Source of the DNA: an archaeon
GTDB lineage: Archaea; Hydrothermarchaeota; Hydrothermarchaeia; JALTZZ01
DNA: 64,000 bases
Reading direction: 5' to 3'
Assembly (NCBI GenBank): GCA_027051165.1
Contig: JALTZZ010000029.1
Location: 9,001 to 73,000, forward strand
In this document: positions 28,904 to 53,494 of the stretch, piece after piece
Position numbering within the stretch: the first letter of the stretch is position 1
Layout of the letters: every line of letters begins with the position of its first letter
Made by a program: the position numbers and the translations under genes
The notes under the pieces: model-generated
What the model saw: the letters and a program-made list of their open reading frames with translations, nothing else
Told to the model about the DNA's origin: nothing
Databases searched by the model: none

Positions 28904-28976
28904 GGGCCCGTAGCTCAGCAGGCAGAGCGCCGCCTTCGCAAGGCGGAGGCCTCGGGTTCGAATCCCGACGGGTCCA
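28904..28976 (+). tRNA. tRNA-Ala (anticodon CGC); its 3' part (28935-28976) is the provirus att core
   Basis: Cloverleaf: acceptor GGGCCCG/CGGGUCC with the G3:U70 Ala identity pair; anticodon stem CCGCC/GGCGG with loop UUCGCAA; T-arm UCGGG-UUCGAAU-CCCGA; followed by an oligo-T. Confidence 0.95.
28935..28976 (+). repeat. attL core (42 bp; 3' part of tRNA-Ala)
   Basis: Identical to 63294-63335. Confidence 0.9.
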
Positions 28977-29186
28977 TTTTGATCGTTTTGCACAAAAGAG
29001 GCTTGAGTTAAGCTTATTTTTTACAACAATTTTTTCATTTACAAATTTGTTTTCATTTACGCTATTTTTTGCGTATTTTAAAATATTTTCGAATACTTTC
29101 CGTTTAGCTCTTTTGTCTTTATATACACTATTGATGAATTCTTCAACCCTGCTCATTGTCCTAAGCGAATTTCCAGTATTATACAA
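28935..29186 (-). CDS. int: Integrase N-terminal fragment int(N) of an SSV-type split tyrosine integrase (with in-frame att core)
   Basis: Minus-strand ORF MYNTGNSLRTMSRVEEFINSV...CAKRSK followed by core-encoded WTRRDSNPRPPPCE. The same 14 aa are encoded in the same frame in the int(C) ORF at the other end. The listed 138-aa ORF 28770-29186 is a read-through across the tRNA. Confidence 0.7.
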
Positions 29187-30006: not shown

Positions 30007-30450
30007 GTGATCAACATGACCGAGGTTGTGGGTAAGGACTTGAAGACCGTGTGGATGGCTGTGGACATTTTGAGGCATGAAGGATTTGAGGTTGATGCCA
30101 AGAGAGCGATGAGAGCGGTAAAGCAGAAAATGAAGCTTGTAGAGTGCTTGAAAGATAAAAACGGCAGAGTTTGGGCAATAGTTAAGAACGGAGAAGGAAA
30201 AGAGTATGAAGTAAGGATAAGCGTAAGCGAGAAGATAGTTAGGTGCTCCTGCGAAGACCACAAATACAGAAAAACTGTCTGCAAGCATGCAATTTTCGTT
30301 TTTCTTAACTGCTTTGAAGAAGCCCAAGAAAAAGCCAAGAAAAAACAAGACGATCTAAGCGAGGAAGAAGTTTCACAGGATACTGCTAAAATGCTCAGCG
30401 AAATGGAAGGCCCAGAAAAAGAAGAAGTTGAAGCTTTCTACGGGTGGTGA
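30007..30450 (+). CDS. SWIM-type zinc finger protein (paralogue of 41910-42320)
   Basis: C-x-C-x(n)-C-x-H: RCSCEDHKYRKTVCKHAIFV; the C-terminus ...EAFYGW is shared with the paralogue. Confidence 0.5.
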   Translation: MINMTEVVGKDLKTVWMAVDILRHEGFEVDAKRAMRAVKQKMKLVECLKDKNGRVWAIVKNGEGKEYEVRISVSEKIVRCSCEDHKYRKTVCKHAIFVFLNCFEEAQEKAKKKQDDLSEEEVSQDTAKMLSEMEGPEKEEVEAFYGW

Positions 30451-32754: not shown

Positions 32755-33408
32755 ATGGTAGAAGAGGAAATAAAAGACAAGGTAAACAGAATGCTTGGCA
32801 CGGAGCAGGCAAAGCTCAGCGAGATACAAATTGTTGATGACATGGACGAAGATTTAATAATCAAGGAGAAGGTAGAGGGAACAGATGCATTAGTTTACAA
32901 AATCAAGGATAAATACTACCTGAGCATTCAGGGAGTGATGTATGCCGCACTGAGGCGAGGAAACATTCACATAGTAACCGTAGACATCAGAAAATTCGGC
33001 GATAAAGAAGTTGGCTACTGCGAGGCAATGGATTTAAAGAGAAACGTGAAGATAGCAGCAATAGCGGAGAGATACACAAACGAGCAGTATAAAGTAACAA
33101 CGCTGATAAACAACTTCAAGAAACAAGAGAAAAAGAGAGAATACGATCATTTCGCAGAGAAGATAGTTGAGCACTTTCACAAAGACGTAAAAGAGCGAAA
33201 TCTTGCTATAAACCTCGAAACATACGTTGAGATCAGAAAGCTAAGGGAACTAATGACGATAAGAAAGCTGCTCGGAAAGCTGATAGACACGATAGAAGAG
33301 ACAGACAGCTACAGCAGCTTAAGAAAAAGAGTAAAGTCGCTTGAGGGGCAGATGAAAGCAGTAAGACAGATAGTGCTTGCTTTGGCAGAGAAGGAGGCAC
33401 ATGGATGA
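32755..33408 (+). CDS. Hypothetical protein
   Basis: 217-aa ORF within a colinear + strand block. Confidence 0.35.
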   Translation: MVEEEIKDKVNRMLGTEQAKLSEIQIVDDMDEDLIIKEKVEGTDALVYKIKDKYYLSIQGVMYAALRRGNIHIVTVDIRKFGDKEVGYCEAMDLKRNVKIAAIAERYTNEQYKVTTLINNFKKQEKKREYDHFAEKIVEHFHKDVKERNLAINLETYVEIRKLRELMTIRKLLGKLIDTIEETDSYSSLRKRVKSLEGQMKAVRQIVLALAEKEAHG

Positions 33409-33953
33409 AACTTTCGGTAAAATACCACCCGCCAGAGATCATTATCACAGAAAACATGAGAAAAAGAGCGGACAGAGAGGCAAAAAAGATAGTTAAGGCA
33501 TGTAAAGAAGCCGGCATGAAGCCGAGATTTGGCGGAGACTACAGGTCGCACTACATAGGAAAGCTCGGCGAGCAGGCTTTTCTACTATTTCTCAAAAACA
33601 AGGGTATAAAAAATGTAGAGATCCCAGCGATAAGAAGCGACTACAGAATATTGGACCACAGACCAGATTTCATAGTTAACGGTAGGGAGATTGAGGTAAA
33701 AACTCAGATAAAGAGCGGCAAGTCTTATTTCCTCTATCCAATCAGTCAGTTCCAGAAGTATTATCCAGATCTCGTTGTTTTCATAGATTACAGAGTAAGA
33801 GAAAACAAGTGCGTCCTGTATGGGTATATCCAAGGGTGGAGAATAGAGTTCATGAAAAAAGACTATTCGGTTAGGTATCCAGCCTACAGGATACCGGAGA
33901 GCGAGCTCAGTAAAATGGAGAAGCTACTTCTTTTGCTTGGTGGAGTAGCATGA
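33405..33953 (+). CDS. PD-(D/E)XK-type nuclease-like protein
   Basis: DHRPDFIVNGREIEVKTQ gives D-x(n)-E-x-K. Confidence 0.4.
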   Translation: MKLSVKYHPPEIIITENMRKRADREAKKIVKACKEAGMKPRFGGDYRSHYIGKLGEQAFLLFLKNKGIKNVEIPAIRSDYRILDHRPDFIVNGREIEVKTQIKSGKSYFLYPISQFQKYYPDLVVFIDYRVRENKCVLYGYIQGWRIEFMKKDYSVRYPAYRIPESELSKMEKLLLLLGGVA

Positions 33954-34450
33954 CGGTGTTCACGTGTCCTTGGTGTCCAATAACGACAAAAACTCTCTAC
34001 GGGCTCAGAGTTCACGTTAAGACTATACACAAAGACAAAATAATTGACAAGCGAAAAGCCGTTGCCATTCTTGTTAGAACAATGAAAAGCATCGTTCTCA
34101 CAGCGAACGAAAAGAAAAAAGAAGAACTGCTTAAAGCAAGCTTCTCAGTATCGCATAACAACAGCTTAACTGGAAAACGTGCGAAAGCGATCGCATACTT
34201 TTTCTGCAGCAGCAAAGATGCAAGGAAAATGCTCGATGAAGCGTTTAAGCTCAGGGTTAACTATGGTAGACCTAACGGTTCGAGCAATAACGGTGAGAAA
34301 ATAAGAGAATTGAAAAAGCAGATAGAAAACGGCGGAAAAGTTAAAACTGACTTGTTCACTCTCGTAGAGCTACTAAACAGCGAGAAAGACAGCACGACAG
34401 CGAGAAAAGTGAGAGAAGCAATAAAAGCGGAGAGGTATAAGCTAACATGA
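33950..34450 (+). CDS. C2H2-like zinc-finger protein
   Basis: CPWCPITTKTLYGLRVHVKTIH. Confidence 0.35.
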   Translation: MTVFTCPWCPITTKTLYGLRVHVKTIHKDKIIDKRKAVAILVRTMKSIVLTANEKKKEELLKASFSVSHNNSLTGKRAKAIAYFFCSSKDARKMLDEAFKLRVNYGRPNGSSNNGEKIRELKKQIENGGKVKTDLFTLVELLNSEKDSTTARKVREAIKAERYKLT

Positions 34451-34453
34451 ACG

Positions 34454-34619
34454 GTGTCAAGAACAACCTTGACACTAATAATAATGTGTCAAGCTCCAAC
34501 TTGACACATAGAAGAAGAACAACATATAGTGAGCACGGTGTCAACAACAAGATTGATGACGACACCGTAAAAAACAGTAGTGGTAATACATCTAATGTGT
34601 CAACTTTCAGCTTGACACC
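34454..34619. promoter_or_regulatory. Array of three palindromic sites GTGTCAAG-N6-CTTGACAC, plus a half-site (candidate origin/iteron or regulator-binding array)
   Basis: Palindromes at 34454-34475, 34486-34507 and 34598-34619 lie inside the low-complexity (N/S/T-rich) N-terminal part of ORF 34447-35211. Confidence 0.5.
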
Positions 34620-34635
34620 AGAAGAAGCAGCAGAC

Positions 34636-35211
34636 ATGGTTGATATATTAGCAGAATTAAAATATAATAAAAACAAGCTGAAGCTTGCTTATTTTCTTGT
34701 AAAAAACAGAAACTATATAAGCGTAACAGAGGCGGCGAAGCTATTAAAAGTGAAAAGACAGGCAATCCATCAAATGCTTGAGAATTCAGAGATATTTAAC
34801 TACGCTGTTATAAAAACAAAATTTTCTGAAGGTTATAAAAGCAAAAAAATAACATTATCAGCATTCTGCGAAAAATATGCAGCAGTTATAGAAAAATTGG
34901 CAACGAAAAAACTAAGTCTCGAAGAAATTTTAAAAATTGAGAAATTTAAACCAGCGATACAAATGAAAGCTGAGAAATACTTTCAAAACAATGGAAAAGA
35001 GTTTGTAAAACGTGGTATAGAAATATACATTAATGAAGGTGAACGAGGGCTCAACAAATATTTACAGGGTCTTTCTACCAAGCCGTTTTGGACTCAAGAA
35101 AAAGTAACAGTTCTAAAAGAAATTATCATGGAAAAGATCAGAAAAAAAATGAATTCTACTTATTTTTTAATTAAAATGAAAATTTATGAAAAATTAGAAG
35201 GGGAGGAATAA
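34636..35211 (+). CDS. Hypothetical protein with HTH-like segment
   Basis: ISVTEAAKLLKVKRQAIHQMLEN is HTH-like. The ORF formally opens at 34447, but its first ~60 codons are low-complexity and carry the palindrome array, so Met at 34636 is the more plausible start. Confidence 0.3.
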   Translation: MVDILAELKYNKNKLKLAYFLVKNRNYISVTEAAKLLKVKRQAIHQMLENSEIFNYAVIKTKFSEGYKSKKITLSAFCEKYAAVIEKLATKKLSLEEILKIEKFKPAIQMKAEKYFQNNGKEFVKRGIEIYINEGERGLNKYLQGLSTKPFWTQEKVTVLKEIIMEKIRKKMNSTYFLIKMKIYEKLEGEE

Positions 35212-35214: not shown

Positions 35215-35736
35215 ATGGAAAGAATAGTTAAATGCAAGCTTGACTGCTGCGATACCAGAGCTTTCGAGTGCGACGAGGAAAATTGCAAAACACAGATGCT
35301 GTGCTGCAAATGTCCAAGTGGAACACCTGAGTTACCAAAAGTAGAGTGTCCAAACTGCGGGGCTATTGCAGACATGGGCGAGCTTTTCGAAGTCGAGACA
35401 TTCCCAGAAACGAGCTTACAAAAGATTTACAACAAAATAGCAGGAATAATAAACGATTTCATTTTATTTTTAAGGGACGTATTAAGTGGCGGAGTGTATT
35501 GCTCTAAATGGCCAAAAATCATAAACAAAATAACGGGAAGATCAAGGTTTAGAGTTCCCTACAAGATAGTTGATAAGCTACTGCCAACACTTCCATACTG
35601 GAGACTAAAATATTTTGATCATTTTATTTGGATCTGTAAAAAATGCGGAATGAAGTATTTAGACCCGGATCCTTATACTTTTCTAACTTTTGATTATAAA
35701 AAAGAGGAGTGTGTGGAAAATGAAGGCCGTTTGTGA
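35215..35736 (+). CDS. Cys-rich hypothetical protein
   Basis: Multiple CxxC pairs (CKLDCCD, CCKCPSG, CPNCG, CKKCGM); GGAGG Shine-Dalgarno sequence upstream. Confidence 0.35.
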   Translation: MERIVKCKLDCCDTRAFECDEENCKTQMLCCKCPSGTPELPKVECPNCGAIADMGELFEVETFPETSLQKIYNKIAGIINDFILFLRDVLSGGVYCSKWPKIINKITGRSRFRVPYKIVDKLLPTLPYWRLKYFDHFIWICKKCGMKYLDPDPYTFLTFDYKKEECVENEGRL

Positions 35737-36466
35737 AGGAAAATACCTACGGGGAGTATTTGAGGCGGTAGGAAAGATAGTGAACACAGCAATACTGAAA
35801 GCAAGCGAGGACGGCATGAAACTGAGAGCAATGAACTCAGAGCATACAATACTCGTTGACATGGAACTTGAAAAAAGTTTGTTCGAAGACTACGAAATAG
35901 AAGAAGACGAAAGCATAGGCATAGACATTAGCCAGCTGCTGAAGATACTGAAAAGAGCGAAAAAAGACGACAACATTACATTAGAAACAAGCAAAGAAAC
36001 AATAAAAATAACAATTGACGGCACTGCAGAGAGGACGTTTGAGTTCCCAGCATTAGCAGACGTCGAAGAAGATGAAATAAAGTTCCCAGAGCTTAACTAT
36101 GAAGCGGAAATATCCATTGAGGATCCAAGTGTCCTTAAGGAAATCATGAAAGACGTGGAGATAGTAGGCAACGCTGCTGTGCTTAAGGCAACAAAAGAGG
36201 AGTTTATAATACAAGCTCAAGGAAACGGATATGCATTCTCGAGCTACAAAGCGGCTCCCAGCAACATAAGCCTAAACCTTGATGAAGAGGCTGAAGAGGT
36301 AAAAAGTGCGTTCTCCGTCGAGCTCCTGAAGGATGTTCTGAGAGCGGACAAGTTCATATATAATGCTAAGGTCCATCTTGGCAACGACATCCCACTTAAG
36401 CTTGAGTATACAGGGCCGGGAATAAAGCTGACATACCTAATAGCCCCAAGAATCGAAAACGAATAA
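35720..36466 (+). CDS. Virus-encoded PCNA (DNA polymerase sliding clamp) homologue
   Basis: MKAVCEGKYLRGVFEAVGKIVNTAILKASEDGMKLRAMNSEHTILVDMELEKSLFEDYEIEEDESIGIDISQLLKILKR ... LGNDIPLKLEY ... LIAPRIE matches the PCNA topology and motifs over ~248 aa. Confidence 0.7.
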   Translation: MKAVCEGKYLRGVFEAVGKIVNTAILKASEDGMKLRAMNSEHTILVDMELEKSLFEDYEIEEDESIGIDISQLLKILKRAKKDDNITLETSKETIKITIDGTAERTFEFPALADVEEDEIKFPELNYEAEISIEDPSVLKEIMKDVEIVGNAAVLKATKEEFIIQAQGNGYAFSSYKAAPSNISLNLDEEAEEVKSAFSVELLKDVLRADKFIYNAKVHLGNDIPLKLEYTGPGIKLTYLIAPRIENE

Positions 36467-36518: not shown

Positions 36519-37142
36519 ATGGATAAAAAAACATATTATCAGACCAGAAACAAAATATTTAATGTCATTTGGATATCAATAATCCCACCAAGGGGGTACA
36601 ACAGAAGGAAGAAGATAGTAATTCTGCCGAGCGAGCTACATAAATTCGTTTTCTGTCCAAAACAATTTTTATTCGACAAAAAATTAAAGAGAAAACCGCC
36701 ATTAAAGAGAAGGATTCTTATTCTTATAGGAAAGATAAAACATTATTTATATATAAAGAGAGGCTACAAGAAAGAGCACCTGCTCGAGGCCGAAATACCA
36801 TGGCTTAACGCAGTGCTGATAGGCAAACCAGATGCTTTCAAAGTTAAAGATAATGTAATAATTCTGGAAGAACTAAAAAATAGGAATGGGCCACTTAATG
36901 GTGCATGGGATTCTGATGTAATTCAAGCATTAGCTTACGCATATCTTTTAAAAGAAAACTATGGCAAAAACGTTAAGATAACTATAATATATAAGAACAG
37001 AAAAGTCGAAGTTCCTTATAACGAGGCTCTTTTAAAGCTATGTTTAGCGGACTATGTAGCCGTAGCAATCGGAGCAAGCGTCCCCATAGCCAAGAAAAGC
37101 GGAAAGTGCAGATGGTGCCAATATCAAGCGGAGTGCAAATAA
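36519..37142 (+). CDS. Cas4-like PD-(D/E)XK nuclease with Fe-S cysteine motif (viral Cas4-like)
   Basis: N-terminal Cys (FVFCPKQF); D..ExK (GKPDAFKVKDNVIILEELK); C-terminal C-x2-C-x5-C (CRWCQYQAEC). Confidence 0.55.
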   Translation: MDKKTYYQTRNKIFNVIWISIIPPRGYNRRKKIVILPSELHKFVFCPKQFLFDKKLKRKPPLKRRILILIGKIKHYLYIKRGYKKEHLLEAEIPWLNAVLIGKPDAFKVKDNVIILEELKNRNGPLNGAWDSDVIQALAYAYLLKENYGKNVKITIIYKNRKVEVPYNEALLKLCLADYVAVAIGASVPIAKKSGKCRWCQYQAECK

Positions 37143-37260: not shown

Positions 37261-37929
37261 ATGAGTAAATTAAGAGAGCTAAGAGAGGTATTTAATAAAC
37301 CGAAGAATATACTAAAATTCATAATTTTTGGTATTTGGGTGCTTATTTCGTTAATCCCTACACTTGCAACTCTAAATAATTGGAGTTATATATCCGTTAT
37401 GTTTCCCTATGTTATAGGGTACATGATATGGTTTTTAAGTCACAACTTATTAGGTCCCAATCGTTACTGGTGGTTATTATCATTTTTTTGGGTAGTTTCT
37501 TATGCTATACTATTTATATTTATAATTAGTAATATTGTGCTATCTAATCCTGTAGAATTCAGCAAGGGTCCACATTACCTTCCTCTCGCAATTCCTCTTG
37601 TCATTGCCATTACTGCTTTTCTTACTAACATTATCCACGAGGAAAAAATAAGCGAAAAAGAGATTTTAGAAGGACTTAAATATAGTGCCTATCCAGCGAC
37701 ATTAGCAGCTTTATCTGTGGGTCTTCATGCATTACTTGAAAATAAAGAGCTAACACGAATTGCAACAGTATTTTTTATAGTATCTTCTTTTTTTGTTTTA
37801 GTCTATTATTGGTATATAAATATTAAAGAAGAAAAAGATGATAGTCTCCTAACACTCTTAAGAATATTTTCTGTTGGATTCTTTTTTGGAGGTCTTGTTT
37901 CTCTACTATCTGCAATTATGCCAATATAA
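37261..37929 (+). CDS. Polytopic membrane protein
   Basis: 222 aa with ~6 TM helices. Confidence 0.4.
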   Translation: MSKLRELREVFNKPKNILKFIIFGIWVLISLIPTLATLNNWSYISVMFPYVIGYMIWFLSHNLLGPNRYWWLLSFFWVVSYAILFIFIISNIVLSNPVEFSKGPHYLPLAIPLVIAITAFLTNIIHEEKISEKEILEGLKYSAYPATLAALSVGLHALLENKELTRIATVFFIVSSFFVLVYYWYINIKEEKDDSLLTLLRIFSVGFFFGGLVSLLSAIMPI

Positions 37930-38286: not shown

Positions 38287-38787
38287 ATGAAGCTTGACAA
38301 ACTTGACGCCACTAAGGAAAAGCTTGACAACCTTGACGAGCTTGACGCTGTGACCGTGCCCAATCCCCGCTGCAAAATCTGCCGCTCGCCATATTTGCAC
38401 GAGATAAACAGGATGCTTATTGAAGGCAAGCCATACAGCGAGATAATAGCCAAGTTCCCAGATCTCAATCTAAACAAGCAGAACATAAGCAACCATAAAA
38501 AACACTTTAATTTCATTAGACGAGGGATAGAAAAATATTACCAACAGCTTGAGGAGGGGGCTGACAAGATCGTTGACACTATAAAAATCCTCGACGATGT
38601 AATAATGAGGAGCTACGTTTTTTTAGCTGAAACGAACCCAAAAGAAAAGCCAAGAGTTTGGGAAGTTCTAACAAATGCAATATACAGGGCAGCAAGTTTA
38701 AAACATAAAATAATGGGAGACTATGATGAAGAAGAAGGTTTACTCGAAGAAATATTTGGAAAAGCTGAGGATATTGAAGAAAAATAA
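38287..38787 (+). CDS. Putative terminase small subunit (position-based) with N-terminal CTTGAC repeat cluster
   Basis: Immediately upstream of, and overlapping, terL. The 5' 75 nt contain five CTTGAC hexamers (KLDKLD..KLDNLDELD). Confidence 0.35.
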   Translation: MKLDKLDATKEKLDNLDELDAVTVPNPRCKICRSPYLHEINRMLIEGKPYSEIIAKFPDLNLNKQNISNHKKHFNFIRRGIEKYYQQLEEGADKIVDTIKILDDVIMRSYVFLAETNPKEKPRVWEVLTNAIYRAASLKHKIMGDYDEEEGLLEEIFGKAEDIEEK

Positions 38788-40087
38788 AGAATTGAAAGAA
38801 AAAATTAAAAAAGATCCAGTTATATTTTCAAAATTTCTTCTTAATTTTGACCCTCATGAAGCACAGCAACAAATAATGAGAGATACACACAAATTTATAA
38901 CAGTAGTTGCAGGAAGAAAGTTTGGTAAAACAAAATGCATGGCAGCATATGCTTTATTTTACGCTTTAACAAATCCTAAGCATAGAATACTCGTCGTTGC
39001 ACCAAGCTATTCCCAAGCGTCAATAATGTTTAGGGAAATGTATAATTTTATAAGAAGATCAATTATAAACAAATATGTGTCAAAAATACTAAAAACTCCG
39101 TTTCCACAGATATATTTCAAGAACGATGCTGAAATACATGCAAGATCAACACAAAATCCGGACCTACTGAGAGGTGAGGAAGCAAATCTAATAATAATGG
39201 ATGAAGCTGCATATATTAAAGACGATGTAGTAACCAACGTTCTTGAGCCAATGCTACTTGTAACAAATGGCAGGTGGATAAAAATATCTACACCAGCTGG
39301 TCATAATCATTTTTATGATACCTTCCTTAAGGGACTAAGTGAAGAGTTCCCAGAATATTCAAGTTATCACTTCACATCAACGGCTAATCCTTATGTAAGC
39401 GAAGACTTTATTGAACTAAAAAAGAAAGAGCTTGGAGAAAATTCAATTGCTTTTAGAACAGAATATTTAGCTGAGTTCGTAGAGGATCATAATGCAGTTT
39501 TCAGATGGTCAGATATTCAGAAAAATGTTGCAGATATTGAGCTAATTGACGGGGCTGAGCATATAAGCCGCAGCTATGTTATAGGAGTTGATTTAGCTAA
39601 ATATCAAGATTATACTGTTATCTGCGTTCTCGATGCAACTGAAAAGCCCTATCGCTTAGTTCATTTTGAGAGGTTTAACAGAAGACCTTACGCAGAGGTT
39701 ATTGAGAGAGTTAAGGATCTACATCGCAGGTTCAACGGTGCCAAGGTTCTAATAGACAGCACTGGTGTAGGAGACCCTATCCTGGAGGAACTGCAAGCTT
39801 CTATAGGAGCCGAGGGATACGTATTTACGAGTAAGAGCAAGGTGCAACTTATTCAGAAATTACAAGCTGTTATGGAGAATGGGGAAATAAAATACCCGTA
39901 TATCGAGCCGTTGGTCAAGGAACTACAATTTTTCGAATACCAATTGACGAGAACAGGCGTAAAAATGGAAGCAAGGCAAGGAATGCACGACGACTGTGTG
40001 ATAGCACTTGCATTAGCCGTGTGGGCGGCGGAGCAGTATTCAGGCTCTGCGGGTGGGGAGATCTATCTTGGCTACTCATTTTTATAA
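38723..40087 (+). CDS. terL: Terminase large subunit
   Basis: Walker A VVAGRKFGKTK; Walker B LIIMDEAAYI; C-terminal RNaseH-like nuclease segment (VIGVDLAKYQDYTVICVLD ... HDDCVIALALA). Confidence 0.7.
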   Translation: MMKKKVYSKKYLEKLRILKKNKELKEKIKKDPVIFSKFLLNFDPHEAQQQIMRDTHKFITVVAGRKFGKTKCMAAYALFYALTNPKHRILVVAPSYSQASIMFREMYNFIRRSIINKYVSKILKTPFPQIYFKNDAEIHARSTQNPDLLRGEEANLIIMDEAAYIKDDVVTNVLEPMLLVTNGRWIKISTPAGHNHFYDTFLKGLSEEFPEYSSYHFTSTANPYVSEDFIELKKKELGENSIAFRTEYLAEFVEDHNAVFRWSDIQKNVADIELIDGAEHISRSYVIGVDLAKYQDYTVICVLDATEKPYRLVHFERFNRRPYAEVIERVKDLHRRFNGAKVLIDSTGVGDPILEELQASIGAEGYVFTSKSKVQLIQKLQAVMENGEIKYPYIEPLVKELQFFEYQLTRTGVKMEARQGMHDDCVIALALAVWAAEQYSGSAGGEIYLGYSFL

Positions 40088-42742: not shown

Positions 42743-43882
42743 ATGAGAATTATAAAGAAAATAGTTCAAAATTTTACAAGAAAACAAGCAAAGTACGAGG
42801 CGGAGAAGGTTGAGATTTTTCCATTCAGCAACTTGGACAACAGCATAGCCTTCAGCTCAGGGGTTTTAGCAAACTACAGCGATTACGAGAGGCTTTATTT
42901 TACCAGCGTTGATGCAGCAACTGCGATTGATCTCATAGCCCATTATGCGATCACGGAGATCAGCTTTAGCGGTGACGAGAAAGACGTTGAAATAGCAGAA
43001 GAATTTGCTAAACGTGTTAATTTGAGATCAAGGCTTATCAATGATGTGCGAATGATGCTGATTTATGGAAATAGCTACGAATACATAGCAAACGACGAAA
43101 ATGGAGAAATAGTGTTGCAGAACCTGAACCCAAAAATGGTTACAATTAAGGTTGACAAATACGGCGAGATCCAAGCTTACAGATACCAGCCGAGCAAGGG
43201 CGTTGATCTGCCACCAGAGCGAATCATGCACTTCGCCTATGGAAGGCTTGGCAATTCACCTTACGGCTATTCGTTGGTGCACCAAGTATATGGCGACATA
43301 GTCCTTAAGCAGGCGATAGAAAAAGTTCTTGCGTATATTGCACACAGAATGAGCCACCCGCTTTTGCATGCTCGAGTGAAGAATCCTCAAAAGATCAAAG
43401 ATGTCGCAAATCTGCTTGCAAGCAGAATAAAAGACAACAGTTCAAGTGTAGAAAAAATCCAAATTTTAAACGAAATAGTGACCGATGAGGGAGTAGAGCT
43501 TCAGGTTCTCAACCCACAGTTAGATATCAGCGGAATTGTCAGAGCTTTAGAATATCTGCAGAACAAAGTTGACAAGGCTCTCAAGGTTCCCCGAATATTT
43601 TACGGTGAGCCTGAGGGAAGCAATAGGGCAAGCTCCTACAACCAGATCAGAATTTTTAGATTGTTTTTGGATTCATTAAGGGCTATTGTGAAAGAAGAAA
43701 TGGAAAAGAAGCTTTTCCCAGCTTTGAACATAGATGTAGAGATAGAATTTGAAGAGATTACAACAGAGGAAGAGATGGCATGGGCTGACATCGCAGCGAA
43801 ATTATACGAAGCAGGCATAGTGGCCACGGACGAAGCAAGAGAAATGATTGGTCTTCCACCGAGAGAAGAGGCTGAAGAATGA
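42743..43882 (+). CDS. Putative portal protein
   Basis: 379 aa; position between terL and the MuF-like gene (canonical terS-terL-portal-MuF order). No motif-level confirmation. Confidence 0.45.
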   Translation: MRIIKKIVQNFTRKQAKYEAEKVEIFPFSNLDNSIAFSSGVLANYSDYERLYFTSVDAATAIDLIAHYAITEISFSGDEKDVEIAEEFAKRVNLRSRLINDVRMMLIYGNSYEYIANDENGEIVLQNLNPKMVTIKVDKYGEIQAYRYQPSKGVDLPPERIMHFAYGRLGNSPYGYSLVHQVYGDIVLKQAIEKVLAYIAHRMSHPLLHARVKNPQKIKDVANLLASRIKDNSSSVEKIQILNEIVTDEGVELQVLNPQLDISGIVRALEYLQNKVDKALKVPRIFYGEPEGSNRASSYNQIRIFRLFLDSLRAIVKEEMEKKLFPALNIDVEIEFEEITTEEEMAWADIAAKLYEAGIVATDEAREMIGLPPREEAEE

Positions 43883-45141
43883 CAGATCCAACGAGAACAA
43901 AAATCTTAAGAGAGGAATTTGCTTCACTGCTCAAAAAACTTCCAGAAAAAGCTAAGAAAAGAGTCAAAGAGATCATAGAAACAGCATATAAAATTGATGA
44001 GGATCTTATAGAGGAAATAAAAAAAGTTATAGAAGAAGAGATGGGACCAGAAGCAGCAGAGAAAATTATAAACAAATATACAGATATATTTTGGCAGCGA
44101 GGGGCGAGTTTTGCATCAAGACAACTAAAAAAGTTTGGAATTGAAATAATTATACCAACACACCTAACGATTCTTGATGAAGAAACTATAAACCAACTGA
44201 AAAATTTGCAGTTAGAACTTGTCAGGGGATTAAGCGAAGAAACAAAGAAAAAAGTTGTTTTTCATATACGTGAGGGGCTTCTTAGAGGGGAATCAATACA
44301 GCAGATCACAAAGAGGATTACAGAGGTTCTTGGAGACGATGCGAAGAAAAGAGCGGAAAAAATAGCACGAACAGAAGCAACAAGAGTGTTTAACAAAGCT
44401 GCAGAAAGCAGATACAGCAAGGCAGGTATAAAATACTGGAGATGGCTTGCAGCGAAAGACGAGCGTTCGTGCAGCATCTGCGGATCAAGGCACGGGAAGA
44501 TATTTAAAATTGGTGATCCAACACCACCTGCACATCCAAACTGCAGGTGCACAATGGTTCCCATCTTAAGCCTAAAGAGTAAAGAGGCGAGGATTTCTAT
44601 CAAAAGAGAATCCAAGGAAATAGCTTTGCAACACTATGCAAGAGTTGTATCAAAAATACCTACGGGTAAGTTTGTTCCTGATGAGGAAAACATTAGAAAA
44701 GTTGCTCAAGCACTTAGGAGAGATGAGAGATTTAAACAGCTTGCCGAAATGTTGGAAATAGACGCTAAAGAATTCGCTAAAAGATATGCACAAGAAGCTT
44801 TGCAAATATTGAGGGAGAACTTCACAAAACATGGTATTGATCGAGCCGTTGAACTCGAAAAGCATGGCATTGTGGTCGTGAACATTTTGAGGCTAAAGAA
44901 AAGAGGGAAGCGATACATCAGCAAAAGAGGACAAGTGAACGTTCTCGCAAAAATTGGAGGTAAACATGATCCAAAATATATAAGAATTGTGCTTGATGAA
45001 AATGATAAAATAATTACTGTTCATAGAATAAGTAAAAGAAAATATGAGAAATATAAGGAGAGGTGGAAAGAAGTTGAAACTAAAAGTTCGAAAAAACGAG
45101 TTCAAAAGATCTGGATTAAAAGAAGGCTTATATTTTATTGA
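43879..45141 (+). CDS. Phage head morphogenesis protein (Mu gpF / SPP1 gp7 family)
   Basis: ARTEATRVFNKAAESRYSKAGIKYWRWLAAKDERSCSICGSRHGKIF is the conserved Mu F-like core. Confidence 0.65.
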   Translation: MTDPTRTKILREEFASLLKKLPEKAKKRVKEIIETAYKIDEDLIEEIKKVIEEEMGPEAAEKIINKYTDIFWQRGASFASRQLKKFGIEIIIPTHLTILDEETINQLKNLQLELVRGLSEETKKKVVFHIREGLLRGESIQQITKRITEVLGDDAKKRAEKIARTEATRVFNKAAESRYSKAGIKYWRWLAAKDERSCSICGSRHGKIFKIGDPTPPAHPNCRCTMVPILSLKSKEARISIKRESKEIALQHYARVVSKIPTGKFVPDEENIRKVAQALRRDERFKQLAEMLEIDAKEFAKRYAQEALQILRENFTKHGIDRAVELEKHGIVVVNILRLKKRGKRYISKRGQVNVLAKIGGKHDPKYIRIVLDENDKIITVHRISKRKYEKYKERWKEVETKSSKKRVQKIWIKRRLIFY

Positions 45142-45340
45142 AATAGATGAAGATATGGATGAGCTCAGAATAGTAGAAAAATCTGATATTCCAATTAGAT
45201 TTTACTCTGAAAACGGAAAGATATTTGCTGATGTGCCTGATGATATTGCAGAGAAGCATAAACTTTTGGATGGAGAAGAACTTGAGATTATAAGCCCTAA
45301 AGATTCTGGCTGGAAATATATTGCTATGTATATTATTTGA

Positions 45341-45353
45341 TTTTTAAAGTCTA
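45341..45353 (+). promoter_or_regulatory. Provirus promoter motif TTTTTAAAGTCTA (AAAGTCT 25 nt upstream of ATG 45371)
   Basis: Member of the recurrent motif family. Confidence 0.5.
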
Positions 45354-45370
45354 ACAGTTGGCTCTTTTTC

Positions 45371-46651
45371 ATGGAAATGCTATTGAAGAACTTAGAGCTT
45401 AATGAGAATAAGAACGTTTTCGTAGAGGGATATGCATCTGCAAACGTGAAAGATCTGGACGGGGACATCATAACAGAGGAAGCACTGCAGCAGGCGGCTA
45501 AGGAACTCACACAGGAGCCGTATAACAAGGTCTTCATAAACCACGATATCAGGGATATCCCGATAGGCAAGATTGTTGCTGCAGAAGTTAGGGACGGCAA
45601 GCTATGGGTTAGGCTGATGCTAAACAAAGCACACCCACAGTTTGAAACCATTTATAACAGCCTAAAAGACGGTTTTTTGGATGCTTTTTCTATTGGATTC
45701 AGAGTTCTTGAACGCAGAGGAAACAAGATAACCCGTTTAAAAATTTTAGAGGTGTCTATAGTGGGAGTTCCCGCAAATCCAGAAGCGGTTGTTGAAAACG
45801 TGTATGAGAAGGGAGCAAAGCTCATTGAAGAAATGGAAACTAAGGGCGTAGTTCCTGGACACCCGTTCAAGTATGGCAAGGATGAGCAGTCAGCATGGAA
45901 GAAGCCAACGTTAAGAGATTTCACAAACAAAAGCTGGGATGAATTAAGTGACGAGGAAAAACGCAGAATAGCAGGACATTTTGCTTGGAGCCCAAAGATG
46001 CCGCCAGAACGTTTCAGCGATCTCAAGCTCCCGCATCACGATCCCAAGACTCATAACGTAGTTTGGAGAGGAGTAGTAGCAGCGATGGCAGCATTGTTCG
46101 GTGCTCGTGGAGGCGTTGACATTCCAAGCGAGGATCGCAAAAAAGTATACAATCACTTGGCAAAGCACTACAGAGAATTCGACAGAGAGCCACCAGAGTT
46201 CAAAACACTTGAAGAGTTTGCAAGAGAATTCCTTGAGCCTGATTTTGAAGATTTAAAAAGTCCAGAGCCTCAGGAAGAAGCAGGTGATAGCATGACTGAA
46301 GAGCTTGAACGTCTGAAAAAAGAAAATGAAGAGCTTAGAAGAAAAGTGGCAGAATACGAGCAAAGAGAAAAAGAGAGATTAATAGATAAAGTGATTTTCG
46401 CAGAAACAAAGCTATACGGCAAAATAGACAAAGAAAAGAGAACTGAAGAGCTTAAAAACAAGACTGTCGTTGAGCTTAAGGATCTGTATCTCGATGTTCT
46501 TGAAAAACTTGCAGAAAAGCAGGAAAAACAGGTTACAGGCAAGGTCGAGGTTCCTCTCGAAGATTCAGAATACATTGAAACAAAATGGGGTAAAGCAGAC
46601 AAGAAAACCCTCGAAGAGCTTAGAAAAATGGTCGGTCTAACAGGTGATTAA
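45371..46651 (+). CDS. HK97-family prohead protease fused to a C-terminal coiled-coil scaffold-like domain
   Basis: N-terminal FVEGYASANVKDLDGDIITEEALQ...IGKIV...LWVRLML resembles the Peptidase_U35/S78 pattern. The C-terminal 150 aa are a charged coiled coil (ELERLKKENEELRRK). Confidence 0.6.
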   Translation: MEMLLKNLELNENKNVFVEGYASANVKDLDGDIITEEALQQAAKELTQEPYNKVFINHDIRDIPIGKIVAAEVRDGKLWVRLMLNKAHPQFETIYNSLKDGFLDAFSIGFRVLERRGNKITRLKILEVSIVGVPANPEAVVENVYEKGAKLIEEMETKGVVPGHPFKYGKDEQSAWKKPTLRDFTNKSWDELSDEEKRRIAGHFAWSPKMPPERFSDLKLPHHDPKTHNVVWRGVVAAMAALFGARGGVDIPSEDRKKVYNHLAKHYREFDREPPEFKTLEEFAREFLEPDFEDLKSPEPQEEAGDSMTEELERLKKENEELRRKVAEYEQREKERLIDKVIFAETKLYGKIDKEKRTEELKNKTVVELKDLYLDVLEKLAEKQEKQVTGKVEVPLEDSEYIETKWGKADKKTLEELRKMVGLTGD

Positions 46652-47060
46652 AATGGTTCTTGAATATATAGAAGGTAAGGCTATACCCATGAAAGCTGCC
46701 CAAGCCATAACGGCTGGGCAGGTGGTGGAGCTTACAGGCGACGAGCAGGTTGCACCTACCGCAGGGGCTTCAGCTAAAGTGCTCGGTGTAGCATTAATGG
46801 ATGCTCAGGCTGGCGAGAAAGTAACTGTGATCACCGAAGGTGTCGTAGAGGTAACAGCTGCAGGTGCTATAGCTGCAGGAGATAAAGTCGTTGCAGCTGC
46901 AAACGGACAGGTAGCTAAGTATACGCCATACGACGTTCCTACAACATTTGCAGATACAGACGTGGAAGCTGCGGTTGCAGAGGCACAGAAAGTCATAGGC
47001 ATTGCCTTAACAAGTGCCACGGCAAGCGGAGATAAAATAAAAATAAAGCTTCAGTTGTGA
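46644..47060 (+). CDS. Head decoration-like protein (DUF2190-like)
   Basis: 138 aa, Gly/Ala/Val-rich with GQVVELTGDEQVAP...KVLGVAL; located between the protease and the MCP. Confidence 0.4.
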   Translation: MIKMVLEYIEGKAIPMKAAQAITAGQVVELTGDEQVAPTAGASAKVLGVALMDAQAGEKVTVITEGVVEVTAAGAIAAGDKVVAAANGQVAKYTPYDVPTTFADTDVEAAVAEAQKVIGIALTSATASGDKIKIKLQL

Positions 47061-47071
47061 GGTGGTGAGAA

Positions 47072-47869
47072 ATGCCCGTTATAACCTCTCAGATTTTACC
47101 CGCAGAAGTTTTGCAGGTAATAAGCGAGGTAATAATACAGGAAGCGGAGAACAGGAGGGTGGGCAGAAACATCGCCACAGTCGAGAAGATAGACAGCGGA
47201 GCACAGGTCTACAAATACAGAAAGTTCACAGGATTTAGCAAAGTTGATGTTATACCAGAGGGATCCGAGTTCCCATTAGAGGGTGTGCAGTTCGAAGAGG
47301 CAAGCGTAGAAATACAGAAGATAGGTAAGGCTTTTGCCGTGACAAGAGAGGAGAACCTTGCAAACAAGATAGTAAGCATCGCTCAGCTTGCTAAGGATGC
47401 TGCAAGAGTAGTGGCTCTCAAGGAAGACGAGCTTATAATAAATGCATTGATACAGGATGCCGGTGCTACTGTAACAGCTGCTGCTCCATGGAGCGGAACG
47501 GGAGATCCATACGACGACGTAAGTGCAGCTATGGCCAAGCTTGAGGAGTATGCATATACCCCAAACGCCCTCGTGCTGCATCCAAACGAAGCTGCTGATC
47601 TAAGAAGGATAGATGCCGATGCAAAGTCCACATACAACGATCTCATCAAGGGCTTGGGAATTAAAATATACGTATCGCCAAAAGTTCCAACAGGCACAGG
47701 TATACTGCTTGATGCAAAGCAGGCTGCTGTGCTCGCAGTTGCAGAGGATATAACAGTTGAAGGTCCAACATATGACCAGAAGACCCAGACATACTTGGTC
47801 AACGTCTTCGAGAGGATCGGTGCAGCGGTCTGGAGACCAAACGCAGTGGTCAAGCTCAGCGGAATCTAA
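47072..47869 (+). CDS. Putative major capsid protein
   Basis: Position immediately after the protease and decoration genes; 265 aa; no motif-level confirmation. Confidence 0.45.
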   Translation: MPVITSQILPAEVLQVISEVIIQEAENRRVGRNIATVEKIDSGAQVYKYRKFTGFSKVDVIPEGSEFPLEGVQFEEASVEIQKIGKAFAVTREENLANKIVSIAQLAKDAARVVALKEDELIINALIQDAGATVTAAAPWSGTGDPYDDVSAAMAKLEEYAYTPNALVLHPNEAADLRRIDADAKSTYNDLIKGLGIKIYVSPKVPTGTGILLDAKQAAVLAVAEDITVEGPTYDQKTQTYLVNVFERIGAAVWRPNAVVKLSGI

Positions 47870-50433: not shown

Positions 50434-50753
50434 GCTTTGCGAAGATCCTTGAAAAACACGGAGTTAATGTAACGCTAAAAAAAGTGATAAGCGTAGAAGA
50501 AGACGAAATATATGGAACTGTTGACGAAACTTATCAAGATACAACTATAAAAGCGATTGTTCAGGATTTGAAAGAAGAAATTAAGCTTGAGAGGCAGGGA
50601 CAAGTTATAACAGCGGAAGCGGTTGCATACGTATCGCCAGACGAGCAGATCAGCGAGCAGGATTACATATTATATAATAACGTATTATATGCTATCGCAA
50701 GGATCAGTTACACGGGAGCTTACAAAAAGCTGTTTTTGTATAGGGTAGAATGA
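50430..50753 (+). CDS. Hypothetical virion-module protein
   Basis: 107 aa; position between the connector and gp10-like genes. Confidence 0.3.
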   Translation: MSFAKILEKHGVNVTLKKVISVEEDEIYGTVDETYQDTTIKAIVQDLKEEIKLERQGQVITAEAVAYVSPDEQISEQDYILYNNVLYAIARISYTGAYKKLFLYRVE

Positions 50754-51160
50754 TCGAAATAAAAATTCTGAATGCAAATGAAGTTGAAAGAGCGATAGAA
50801 AAGTATGGTGCAGAAGCTTTAACAAAAATAGAACTGACACTGAAACAGGCTGGAGCACTCGTTGAAGGAGTTGCAAAACTCAATATACAGAGAGGTCGTC
50901 CAGAGTGGCCGCCATTAAAACCGGAAACCATCAAGCGAAAGAAGAGCATTAAGCCATTAATAGACACTGGAACCCTGCTCAACAGCATCACACATAAAAT
51001 TGAAGGGAATGCTTGCCTTGTCGGGCCGTTTGGTGTTAAGTATGCAGTTTATCAAGAGTTTGGAACTTCACGTATCCCAGCAAGACCATTCTTAAGACCA
51101 GCGTTGCTTGAAAACGAAGAAAAAATAAAAGCATTATTTAAGCAAGCTCTCAAACTCTAA
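50750..51160 (+). CDS. HK97 gp10-family tail-completion/head-tail joining protein
   Basis: LIDTGTLLNSITHKIEGNACLVGPFGVKYAVYQEFGTSRIPARPFLRPAL is the conserved gp10-family C-terminal motif. Confidence 0.65.
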   Translation: MIEIKILNANEVERAIEKYGAEALTKIELTLKQAGALVEGVAKLNIQRGRPEWPPLKPETIKRKKSIKPLIDTGTLLNSITHKIEGNACLVGPFGVKYAVYQEFGTSRIPARPFLRPALLENEEKIKALFKQALKL

Positions 51161-51173
51161 TTTTTTGTTGAGC

Positions 51174-51186
51174 TTTTTAAAGTCTA
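51174..51186 (+). promoter_or_regulatory. Provirus motif TTTTTAAAGTCTA upstream of 51215/51239
   Basis: Member of the recurrent family. A small hairpin GGCCCT-AAGTG-AGGGCC (51207-51223) follows. Confidence 0.35.
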
Positions 51187-51238
51187 ATGCTTCGCTTTTT
51201 TCTCAAGGCCCTAAGTGAGGGCCGAGGAGAGATTTATC

Positions 51239-51688
51239 ATGATAAGAGAAGTGCTTGAAAGCTTGGTAAGGCTACTTAGGGATAACATAGCTGATCCTGA
51301 TCAAGACAGAGCAAATGCTGGCAAAAACTTTATTTTTCCCGGTTGGGTTAGAGAAGATGCCAAAATGCCTCGTATTAGCATAATTTCTGTCGGCACAACT
51401 GAGCAAGAAAGAACGCTTGAAGGTTATTCGCTTTTTGCAATGCAGTATCAAATAGACGTCTGGGTAGATACAAAACGTAGCTTTACGATTAACAATGAAA
51501 AATACAGCGGTGCAAAGCTTCGTGACTATTTAGCTGATCAGGTAATTAAGGTTTTGAGAAAAAATCGCAATTTTATGGAGAACGTAGTTGATGTGGAAAT
51601 TAGAAACGTTCAGGATTTTGAGGAGCGGGAATTTAATCTTTTACGCAAATCTATCACGATCACGGTAAAATATCTGGAGGTTAGCTGA
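51239..51688 (+). CDS. Hypothetical tail-module protein
   Basis: ~150 aa (ORF opens at GTG 51215; ATG 51239 is the likely start), between the gp10-like and major tail genes. Confidence 0.3.
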   Translation: MIREVLESLVRLLRDNIADPDQDRANAGKNFIFPGWVREDAKMPRISIISVGTTEQERTLEGYSLFAMQYQIDVWVDTKRSFTINNEKYSGAKLRDYLADQVIKVLRKNRNFMENVVDVEIRNVQDFEEREFNLLRKSITITVKYLEVS

Positions 51689-51690
51689 AA

Positions 51691-52161
51691 ATGGCTGAAA
51701 TAGCTTATGAAAAGATGTTGAAAGAAGATTTGATTAGATTATGCTACGAAAAAGATGAACAGATAGCAAGTTTACAAGCACAGGTTAACGAGAAGGACGA
51801 GCAGATAGCGAGCCTGCAGGCACAATTGCAGGAATACAGCACTGTGAAGCAGGAACTTGAAAACATGAAAACGCTTGTAAATACACTATTTTCAAAAGAA
51901 GAGATTAAATTTAGGTTAAATGAGAAAATAAGTATTTTAGAAGAGCAAAAACAGAACATCAAGCAGAGGATAAAAGAAATACAGAATACCATAAATTTAA
52001 CAGATTCTGAAAAAACAAAGCTGGTAGCTGGTTATAATAAGCAAATAGCACAGATAGATGACGAAATAACAAAACTCAGGATTATTTTAGATTTATATTA
52101 TTCGGAAGGGGTGAAACTGCATGACTGCACTTATAGGAAATCAGGTTTTGGAGTATGTTGA
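51691..52161 (+). CDS. Coiled-coil protein with duplicated EKDEQIASLQAQ unit
   Basis: 156 aa; tandem 39-nt duplication at ~51750-51830. Confidence 0.3.
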   Translation: MAEIAYEKMLKEDLIRLCYEKDEQIASLQAQVNEKDEQIASLQAQLQEYSTVKQELENMKTLVNTLFSKEEIKFRLNEKISILEEQKQNIKQRIKEIQNTINLTDSEKTKLVAGYNKQIAQIDDEITKLRIILDLYYSEGVKLHDCTYRKSGFGVC

Positions 52162-53017
52162 GGAAGCGAGCGAAGGACAGACGCCAGCAGATCCAGCGAT
52201 GCAGTGGATAGGCATACTTAACAATGTAAGCTTGAAGCTGCCGCAGAAATACACAACATCCCGCTATCTTGCCGACAATGCAAGCACAAACAAGCTCGGA
52301 GCTTTAATAAACGTAAAGCACAGCGAAGAGATAGAACTTAGTTTCACGGTGGAGCTACAGAGTCTCGATTTTTGGGCGAAATATTGTTTGGGAAGTGCAA
52401 CAGGAACGGCAGACAACCTACCAAGCCTATCGTTTGGCATAATCGTTGACGTGGCAGGAACTAAGCATTACGCACTTGTGAAGGGTGCAAAGTGCAAAGA
52501 GGCTAAAATTTCGATAGAAGAAGATGGCACACTGAAACTTGAAGCTACATTTAGGGCTATGGACTTTACAGGCTTCAGCACAACGGACTACATAGGTTTA
52601 GGTTCACATGCAACGGCTAATACAGCACCGCCGTTGAAGTGGAAAGATATTAGCGGTGTGCAATGGGGAGCAGCCCCTATGGATAATTACGGTTGCTACG
52701 TCAAGGGTATAAGCATAAACGTGAGCTACGATCTTAAGGAAGTTAAGGACGTCGGAGCTACCACGAGCACAGGCATAGTAACTATAGTTCCCGTTAAGAG
52801 GGAAATCAAGGTTGGATTAGTAGCAGATTTCCTAAACGTGGACATGGTAAGCAATGTAAGGAATGGAAGCAAAGCGGATCTCGCTATTACAGTTGGAGCA
52901 CAGACTATAACAGTCAAAGACGTTATCTTCCCAGAGGTTGATTTTGAATTGAAACCAGATGATCTCATAGAATACGAGTTTGAATCTCTTGAATGCACAG
53001 GAATAGCAATCGCATAA
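52121..53017 (+). CDS. Putative major tail protein
   Basis: 298 aa; position upstream of the chaperone/frameshift gene; beta-rich composition. Confidence 0.4.
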   Translation: MTALIGNQVLEYVEEASEGQTPADPAMQWIGILNNVSLKLPQKYTTSRYLADNASTNKLGALINVKHSEEIELSFTVELQSLDFWAKYCLGSATGTADNLPSLSFGIIVDVAGTKHYALVKGAKCKEAKISIEEDGTLKLEATFRAMDFTGFSTTDYIGLGSHATANTAPPLKWKDISGVQWGAAPMDNYGCYVKGISINVSYDLKEVKDVGATTSTGIVTIVPVKREIKVGLVADFLNVDMVSNVRNGSKADLAITVGAQTITVKDVIFPEVDFELKPDDLIEYEFESLECTGIAIA

Positions 53018-53029
53018 CGGTGATTCGGT

Positions 53030-53494
53030 ATGAAAATAAAGTATCGCAAGGATCCGCTTCATAAAGATGTCAAAAAAGTAAGAAAACTACAGAAGCAGAT
53101 ATTTTTCAAAGTTTTAAACCTAAGCGAAATCAGCAAAGAAGACAAGAATAAGAGCGTAGAGGAGTTTATCGCTGAGAAGTTAGCCAAAAATCCTGAGAAA
53201 TTAGCAGAGTTACAGGATGAGCTTGAGGAGTTCAACTACATTGCAACGATAATTCTTGCTACAGGGCTTGAACCTGAAGAGATTGAAAAGCTCAGTGAGG
53301 AGCAGTTCTGGGAGGTTTACGAGAAAAGCAAGGAGGCTTTAGGAGGTAAAACTGCTGAGGATTTTTTAAGTCGCTACACAAACGTTACTTCGTTGATGCA
53401 GGCGAAAACAAGCTTAGAATCGCCGACCTTATCGAGCCAGATGGAAGAGAATTCACCAGATCAGTTAAAAGAGCCCTCAAGGGTAAAGAAGTAA
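53030..53494 (+). CDS. Putative tail assembly chaperone (gpG-like)
   Basis: 154-aa acidic protein downstream of the major tail gene. It overlaps a -1 frame ORF that stays open to 53664. Confidence 0.4.
   Translation: MKIKYRKDPLHKDVKKVRKLQKQIFFKVLNLSEISKEDKNKSVEEFIAEKLAKNPEKLAELQDELEEFNYIATIILATGLEPEEIEKLSEEQFWEVYEKSKEALGGKTAEDFLSRYTNVTSLMQAKTSLESPTLSSQMEENSPDQLKEPSRVKK

Follow-up and report, generated by a model that had tools for sequence, protein, structure and literature searches.

A PCNA sliding-clamp gene in an att-flanked head-tail provirus of a probable Hydrothermarchaeota-like vent archaeon

Before the gene considered here was found, sliding clamps of the PCNA type were already documented in several archaeal viruses and integrated elements. 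TKV3, an element integrated in Thermococcus kodakarensis, encodes a PCNA homologue (PMC3914693, PMC3504372), and T. kodakarensis PCNA2 (TK0582) is a 'shell' copy that cells can live without, unlike the essential core PCNA1 (PMC3914693). PCNA is also present in haloarchaeal tailed viruses, HHTV-1, HSTV-1 and others (PMC3950731; 10.1101/2021.07.29.453957), in Aoguangviridae (PMC10768690), in viruses of ANME-1 archaea such as Kisinvirus and the pletoitzamnaviruses (10.1101/2022.07.04.498658), and in Asgard mobile genetic elements and thaumarchaeal spindle viruses (10.1101/2021.07.29.453957). A 2026 survey lists proviruses of Hydrothermarchaeota and does not mention PCNA (PMC13573593). Stand-alone viral PCNA is known to occur and has been called unexplained (Kazlauskas et al. 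2016, PMC4889955). The present case comes from the hydrothermal metagenome REYS20-1 / SAMN12239309, in a stretch of 64,000 nucleotides (GenBank assembly GCA_027051165.1, contig JALTZZ010000029.1, positions 9,001 to 73,000 of the forward strand; the whole stretch is called the window, and positions are counted from its first letter). A gene in its middle encodes a full-length PCNA and lies in a head-tail provirus. Judged from sequence comparison it is most likely a PCNA of the host's lineage that was captured, its evolution being about 7-10 times faster from then on. As virus-encoded PCNAs are so well documented, the existence of this copy is unsurprising.

The open reading frame (ORF) is on the plus strand with its ATG at 35720 and its TAA at 36464-36466; a TTG at 35690 is a possible alternative start that would give a longer protein. 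The Shine-Dalgarno-like sequence GAGGAG precedes the ATG at 35704-35709. The start overlaps the end of the upstream ORF, 35215-35736, by 17 nt, and because of this overlap translational coupling between the two is likely. Directly 3′ of the stop codon is an oligo-T run (36467-36490). The sequence-only reading had called the product a PCNA homologue on the strength of a series of peptides, all of which are in the translation, and had pointed to the two Pfam domains as the check. Both are there above their gathering thresholds over the full length of the protein, PCNA_N at 4e-17 (62.6 bits, cutoff 20.3) and PCNA_C at 1.1e-6 (29.2 bits, cutoff 23). The NCBIfam model NF002219 'DNA polymerase sliding clamp' matches residues 4-247 at 1.2e-54, TIGR00590 scores 105.8 bits and so exceeds its cutoff of 99.1, and a phmmer search against PDB matched the PCNA of Pyrococcus furiosus, 1ge8, at 1.1e-38. 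The protein is acidic (isoelectric point 4.6). With Pfam, NCBIfam and the predicted fold in agreement, and a match far beyond chance, its identity as a full-length PCNA is secure.

The provirus that holds the gene is 34.4 kb long and is bounded by direct repeats, attL and attR, which are identical at 45 of 46 nt (98%), the former at a tRNA-Ala gene (Table 1). A virus location for the PCNA gene, as had been proposed from the letters alone, is borne out by these repeats together with a PF16795 integrase and the genes for the large terminase subunit (TerL), portal, protease, major capsid protein and tail: the region is a genuine head-tail provirus of Caudoviricetes-like type with att sites on both flanks. 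Host genes for TFE-alpha, MoeA, MutS, thermosome and an archaeal phosphoenolpyruvate carboxylase are to the left of the tRNA-Ala gene. The sequence just inside attL (28977-29053) recurs at 78% identity over some 75 nt just outside attR (63338-63414), and the first nine codons of the integrase gene fall in the flank outside attR; this suggests either that a related element had integrated earlier at the same tRNA gene and left a remnant, or that there is an SSV-type att site within the integrase gene.

With TKV3 and PCNA2 of T. kodakarensis the window shares an extra euryarchaeal PCNA that is tied to an integrated element lacking a polymerase of its own, and the PCNA structure 3lx2 is a match to the predicted fold (template-modelling, TM, score 0.89). 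In contrast, the window protein is 26% identical to the T. kodakarensis copy in the structural alignment, and therefore represents an independent acquisition; its element has everything that makes up a head-tail provirus, its host belongs to a Hydrothermarchaeota-like phylum rather than to Thermococcales, and the window copy is known from its sequence. HHTV-1 and HSTV-1 resemble the window virus in being archaeal head-tail viruses that bear PCNA, but their hosts are halophiles, HSTV-1 also encodes an MCM helicase (PMC3950731), and the haloarchaeal virus PCNAs are not close to the window PCNA, the best IMG/VR match being 31%. Aoguangviridae and the ANME-1 viruses are, like the window virus, uncultured marine or hydrothermal archaeal viruses with PCNA. 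They pair it with PolB and in some cases RFC, primase or MCM, whereas in the window virus PCNA is the sole recognisable part of a replisome. The trimeric gp45 of phage T4 is also a virus-encoded PCNA-like clamp (PMC4889955); however, according to PMC4889955 clamps of the gp45 type always co-occur with a viral polymerase and T4 has its own loader, gp44/62. The gp45 clamp belongs to a virus-specific family and is not a recent copy of a cellular gene.

An exhaustive phmmer search with the window PCNA over 1.84 billion cluster representatives returned 4079 PCNAs; only six were below 1e-30 and the best non-self match was 39% identical, and the protein is therefore very divergent. Single-protein scans of GTDB genomes and IMG/VR gave no close relative, the best viral one in IMG/VR being 31% identical. 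A search that started from a cellular homologue exposed closer sequences hidden within 50% clusters. The best match, P0382 (46% identity, 213 bits), is in a chromosomal context downstream of the acetolactate synthase (AHAS) small-subunit gene and an ORF with an oligonucleotide/oligosaccharide-binding (OB) fold, on contigs of 39% GC from sister samples of the same vent study. P0385 is 43% identical to the window PCNA and 73% to P0382 and comes from the window's own metagenome (ENA ERZ23495399 scaffold_5078), where it is carried by a second PCNA-bearing integrative element (L094, 4391-11284). That element has a PF16795 integrase and small ORFs, its PCNA gene is flanked by genes for a ribbon-helix-helix (RHH) protein and a staphylococcal-nuclease-like (SNase) nuclease, and the host genes adjoining it are for orotidine monophosphate decarboxylase and deoxyhypusine synthase. 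A further viral copy, P0398, is 38-39% identical to the window PCNA; it is on a 14-kb contig of a related virus whose portal, Mu-F and protease proteins are 41%, 45% and 61% identical, respectively, to those of the window provirus, and there too PCNA is upstream of the packaging genes.

Chromosomal PCNA loci of the Hydrothermarchaeota type have the order AHAS, OB-fold ORF, PCNA and then primase (PriL, PriS). The OB-fold ORF before the cellular PCNA is RPA3/Ten1-like and 105-117 aa long (loci L083, L087, L088, L091, L085), and PriL and PriS are 3′ of PCNA in most of these loci, a conserved replication cluster. The window gene departs from this synteny, its flanks being a zinc-ribbon ORF and a Cas4 gene. 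As the cellular PCNAs are in a different, conserved context, the window gene is not the replicative clamp gene of the host; the sequence-only reading had named the opposite outcome, a gene that is clearly the only PCNA of the host, as one that would argue against a viral region. Every archaeon needs a PCNA and none other was found in the 64-kb window, and on that ground the gene might be taken for the host's own and the region for non-viral. This is hardly credible, however, for a gene that att repeats enclose together with a full set of head-tail genes and an integrase. Among themselves the related lineage's cellular PCNAs have 52-88% identity, and they adjoin primase genes; the window copy reaches no more than 46% with any one of them.

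Comparison with the PCNA of the host lineage, which had been proposed along with the original assignment, gives moderate support to a cellular origin. Neighbour joining of 39 taxa over 243 columns, with 500 bootstraps and under two distance corrections, placed P0382 and P0385 in one group with the window PCNA in 60-66% of replicates. The terminal branch of the window PCNA is long, 0.72-1.19 versus 0.09-0.11 for P0382 and so 7-10-fold longer; a grouping of the window PCNA with the viral P0398 appears in only 3% of replicates. Derived motifs common to the window PCNA, P0382 and P0385, for example PGIKLT and K81, agree with the grouping in the tree. The most likely reading of these sequence relationships is that a host-lineage PCNA was captured by the virus and went on to evolve at the faster rate given above; the PCNA-bearing elements would in that case represent independent or repeated captures. 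Support for this reading is moderate.

An AlphaFold2 model of the window PCNA, built from 46 homologues, has a mean predicted local distance difference test score (pLDDT) of 91.7 and a predicted TM score of 0.88. It has the PCNA architecture of two topologically identical beta-alpha-beta-beta-beta domains with an interdomain connecting loop, and four helices (7-18, 70-77, 137-149 and 200-212); Foldseek aligned it at TM 0.90 with 7n5i, 3lx1 (Thermococcus PCNA) and 1ge8 (root-mean-square deviation 1.6-2.0 Å). All nine family-invariant residues are retained (9/9), and R105 and F107 are invariant family-wide. The positions equivalent to the pocket for PCNA-interacting protein (PIP) boxes are hydrophobic or identical: M38, L45, I120, F122, P123, Y127, P225, L240, A242 and P243, aligned with M40, L47, L126, I128, P129, Y133, P234, Y250, A252 and P253 of human PCNA. 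The C-terminal tail APRIE is kept, and at sequence level the protein thus has both the PIP pocket and the (L/I)APR(I/V)E tail expected of a PCNA. Six ion-pair residues hold the Pyrococcus PCNA trimer together, and five of the six positions are retained here (R79, K81, R105, E141 and D145). D143 and D147, two of the Pyrococcus ion-pair residues, are the positions mutated according to the title of PDB entry 1iz5. At several positions aligned to the basic residues lining the human PCNA channel, basic residues persist. In two-domain fold, PIP pocket, tail and interface residues the window PCNA is like the homotrimeric cellular PCNAs of the Euryarchaeota (P. furiosus, T. gammatolerans, Hydrothermarchaeota); unlike them it is borne by a provirus, is 31-46% identical to them, has a branch 7-10 times longer and is changed at 14 of 44 highly conserved columns. 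Conservative exchanges (D to N, L to I, K to R, F to Y) make up most of the substitutions. The protein is probably still a working clamp that would form a head-to-tail homotrimeric ring and be loaded by RFC.

Table 1. Features of the provirus and its integration site, in window positions
Feature	Position	Strand	Remarks
tRNA-Ala(CGC)	28904..28976	+	integration target
attL	28935..28980	+	46 nt; repeat covering the 3′ part of tRNA-Ala
SWIM zinc-finger protein	30007..30450	+	ends ...EKEEVEAFYGW; candidate clamp-binding tail, statistically unsupported
Three overlapping early ORFs	32755..34450	+	217, 182 and 166 aa; third with C2H2 zinc finger
ORF containing a helix-turn-helix (HTH)	34447..35211	+	254 aa; in the overlapping run; HTH_17 2e-4, below gathering score
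Cys-rich zinc-ribbon-like ORF	35215..35736	+	173 aa; directly upstream of PCNA; weak Zn_ribbon matches only
PCNA (sliding clamp)	35720..36466	+	248 aa; ORF, profiles, predicted fold
Cas4-family PD-(D/E)XK nuclease	36519..37142	+	207 aa; Pfam Cas_Cas4, PADLOC
Multi-pass membrane protein	37261..37929	+	222 aa; hydrophobic helices; weak CARF_TM-like match
Terminase large subunit (TerL)	38723..40087	+	
SWIM zinc-finger paralogue of 30007-30450	41910-42320	-	
Portal, Mu-F-like protein, prohead protease, cement protein, HK97-fold major capsid protein	42743..47869	+	
Tail module: HK97 gp10-like, tail tube, tape-measure, YQBQ-like distal protein	50750..61938	+	
SSV-type tyrosine integrase	62418..63365	-	PF16795 'Archaeal phage integrase', 4.3e-34
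attR	63294..63339	+	second repeat copy, inside the 5′ end of the integrase ORF

The PCNA gene belongs to a run of overlapping early genes on the same strand (32755-36466), the products of which include RHH, zinc-finger and HTH proteins, together with ORFs of no assigned function; its placement in the early or replication block of a virus, another element of the sequence-only reading, stands with the att-flanked provirus and the full-length gene. The three ORFs at the head of the run (217, 182 and 166 aa) have no match to known replication enzymes. Of the two nucleases that had been claimed as neighbours, the Cas4-like one is directly downstream and was confirmed by Pfam (PF01930, 1.1e-8, 35.8 bits, cutoff 22.7) and PADLOC (Cas4, 1e-18); it has a C-terminal Fe-S cysteine cluster, CxxCx5C, and ends ...CRWCQYQAECK. 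The other, a PD-(D/E)XK nuclease and presumably the ORF 37261-37929, had to be dropped: no PD-(D/E)XK profile matches this ORF at E <=1, its only matches are weak ones to membrane families, and it has the sequence of a multi-pass membrane protein.

Replication genes were sought with Pfam and PHROGs in most provirus ORFs of at least 90 aa (about 36) and with PADLOC in a selected subset, and among these no DNA polymerase, clamp loader (RFC), MCM or other helicase, or primase was found. The clamp is thus a stand-alone viral one, and since neither a viral polymerase nor a viral clamp loader was found, recruitment of host enzymes is the natural inference. The reading we favour, and consider likely, is of a functional, ring-forming PCNA of a temperate head-tail virus, derived from the host, loaded by host RFC and docking host enzymes. 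On it, a virus integrated into tRNA-Ala would have captured a host-lineage PCNA, which would be expressed from the early operon and form a homotrimeric ring. Host RFC would load the ring onto viral primer-template junctions, where it would act as a virus-supplied source of processivity and a docking platform for host PIP-box enzymes such as PolB/PolD, Fen1, ligase and RNase HII. The adjacent viral Cas4 may also dock, and these clients would replicate and process the viral DNA.

Several points weigh against so simple a picture. The NF002219 score, 185.4 bits, does not reach the equivalog cutoff of 293 bits, though this fits a divergent, non-core copy. Agreement with the family is 30 of 44 at highly conserved columns, with 14 of 44 changed, as against 39-42 of 44 for cellular homologues, which depart from the consensus at 0-3 columns, and 40 of 44 for the element-borne P0385, which departs from it at 4. 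Residues ~170-180, the expected C-domain side of the subunit interface, are divergent and are the least confident part of the model (pLDDT ~65). The clade with P0382 and P0385 is only moderately supported, and a 192-taxon neighbour-joining tree draws the window PCNA to unrelated long branches with 22% support, a placement that was rejected as long-branch attraction in favour of the 39-taxon set. The profile searches were not exhaustive, and a novel replication protein could be among the roughly 12 provirus ORFs that carry no annotation. A clamp alone, moreover, cannot distinguish viral from cellular DNA (PMC4889955), and the benefit of a stand-alone viral PCNA is therefore unexplained.

The changed columns, the divergence of one interface strand and the very long branch, together with the conservation of the PIP pocket and of the other side of the trimer interface, which makes binding of partners or subunits plausible, also fit a clamp that serves as a decoy. 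By forming mixed trimers with host PCNA, or by sequestering PIP-box proteins, it would stop host replication and repair or redirect them to the benefit of the virus, and would not be a processivity factor in the main. No viral polymerase was found in the scanned ORFs for the clamp to pair with, and the crystal structure 5da7, in which a small protein inhibitor is bound to monomeric Thermococcus PCNA, indicates that clamp manipulation occurs in archaea. The available observations, however, fit the simple clamp model equally well, most of the substitutions are conservative, and some channel-lining positions are still basic, a feature for which a pure decoy would have no use. Among the cited cases the one extra PCNA copy that has been characterised, PCNA2 of T. 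kodakarensis, can be lost without loss of viability and is not described as toxic (PMC3914693). We regard a decoy as unlikely, and the heterotrimers and competition for partners that had been suggested from the sequence are pure speculation. The long branch and the reduced agreement at conserved columns, with the sub-cutoff NF002219 score, could also be the marks of a non-functional passenger, a host-derived gene in decay that plays no part in the virus cycle, the provirus itself being possibly defective. This is very improbable, as against it stand an intact 248-aa ORF that has a ribosome-binding site and overlaps the gene upstream, a predicted fold of high confidence, and the retention of the nine invariant residues and of pocket and interface residues; PCNA is also kept by a related virus and another element, the att sites are intact and the structural module is complete.

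If the clamp had partners among the virus's own proteins, PIP boxes might be expected in them, and a look for such motifs had been part of what was proposed for the locus. In the provirus proteins nothing above chance came out of it. The sole canonical C-terminal PIP box in the window (...QISLTSFL) is in a plus-strand ORF at 42073-42279 that runs antisense to one of the SWIM genes; its codon score, -0.52, is that of non-coding sequence, and it was set aside. At the C-terminus of both SWIM paralogues, which are at opposite ends of the early and packaging regions, an acidic linker leads into the tail EEV[EK]AFYGW; distant SWIM homologues, from soil metagenomes, are without it. The TerL of the related PCNA-encoding virus, on the Logan SRR21024894 contig (L090, 4598-5785), ends QPKLLKFYGALS, with a canonical PIP box, QPKLLKFY, four residues from the C-terminus (P about 0.06, not compelling alone). 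These tails, with the occurrence of a nuclease gene 3′ of PCNA in two elements (Cas4 in the window, SNase in L094), could point to a clamp that is mainly for viral clients with C-terminal PIP-like tails, perhaps including Cas4, and acts in recombination, genome processing or packaging more than in bulk replication. Against that, the motif counts, set against shuffled proteins, gave P = 0.056 and 0.081, and neither the SWIM AFYGW tails nor the L090 TerL box is significant, the SWIM proteins are paralogous and hence not independent, the window TerL and Cas4 have no PIP box, and the one canonical C-terminal box is in the antisense, non-coding ORF. The tails are a lead, not a finding, and we think a clamp for viral clients quite unlikely. 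A long shot beyond this is that viruses and integrative elements of low-GC Hydrothermarchaeota-like archaea repeatedly capture host PCNA and re-tool it into a virus-private platform for viral proteins with C-terminal [LV]xxFYG tails in which Gln is optional, such as the SWIM paralogues of the window and the L090 terminase. At least three PCNA-bearing elements were seen (the window provirus, L094 and L090), and the gp45 clamp of T4 has non-replicative uses, a loose analogy to such a platform. If true, it would give a sliding clamp of an archaeal virus a connection with the processing or packaging of the genome.

The motif TTTTTAAAGTCTA is repeated at 42712-42739, 45341-45368, 50164-50200 and 51168-51204, in each case close upstream of a gene, namely those for portal and protease and two of the tail module, and is probably a shared late promoter (TATA-like element). 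A 22-nt element (..TTGAAATATATTGACAA) is present three times, at 49465-49486, 50053-50074 and 50089-50110; the copies flank a minus-strand ORF (49490-50044) beside a winged-helix regulator gene (48926-49426), and they look like operator sites. Between TerL and portal is a minus-strand cassette of three genes (40154-42320). One encodes a Csm3/Cas7-like protein of the RAMP (repeat-associated mysterious protein) type (40914-41669; Pfam RAMPs 1e-11, PADLOC Csm3 1.5e-10), and the others are a 255-aa ORF with a weak HD match (E 0.012) and the gene of a SWIM zinc-finger protein. An anti-CRISPR decoy or a moron are possible roles for such a type-III-like RAMP gene standing alone in a virus.

The host is a probable low-GC, Hydrothermarchaeota-like archaeon of deep-sea vents, and is so called because of its thermosome identities and the GC content of the flank. 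The thermosome encoded in the window is 73-77% identical to those of metagenome-assembled genomes, some of them labelled Hydrothermarchaeota or Hydrothermarchaeales, with Archaeoglobi next at 70-72%. The host flank has 36% GC, and the two best thermosome contigs and a contig syntenic for MutS and thermosome have 33-37%; several Hydrothermarchaeota PCNA contigs have 58-61%. The gene order MutS, 176-188-aa ORF, thermosome is conserved in a related metagenome-assembled genome (L096). The host's MutS (18040-20577, minus strand) is of bacterial type, its closest named relatives being those of Archaeoglobus, Ferroglobus and Methanocaldococcus (66-68%). They are not those of the host's thermosome-defined relatives, which suggests that MutS has spread horizontally among vent hyperthermophiles; as a host marker it was uninformative for this reason, and the thermosome was taken instead.

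For the archaea concerned, the locus adds a clean, att-delimited head-tail provirus of Hydrothermarchaeota-like vent archaea, whose viruses are barely described, and, in having a PCNA but no recognised viral polymerase or loader to go with it, it clearly exemplifies the puzzle of stand-alone clamps (Kazlauskas et al. 2016). The probable donor P0382, 46% identical to the window PCNA, and the element copy P0385, 73% identical to the donor, are from the same sample series and with the window PCNA make up a small natural divergence series, which lets one study the surfaces that stay fixed (the PIP pocket and one side of the interface) as against those that drift. Wider interest would follow if it were true that the clamp serves viral clients or poisons the host clamp. 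As it is, the window holds a well-supported viral clamp, of modest interest as a clean example of a clamp probably captured by a virus from its host's lineage, in an archaeal phylum that has been sampled poorly.

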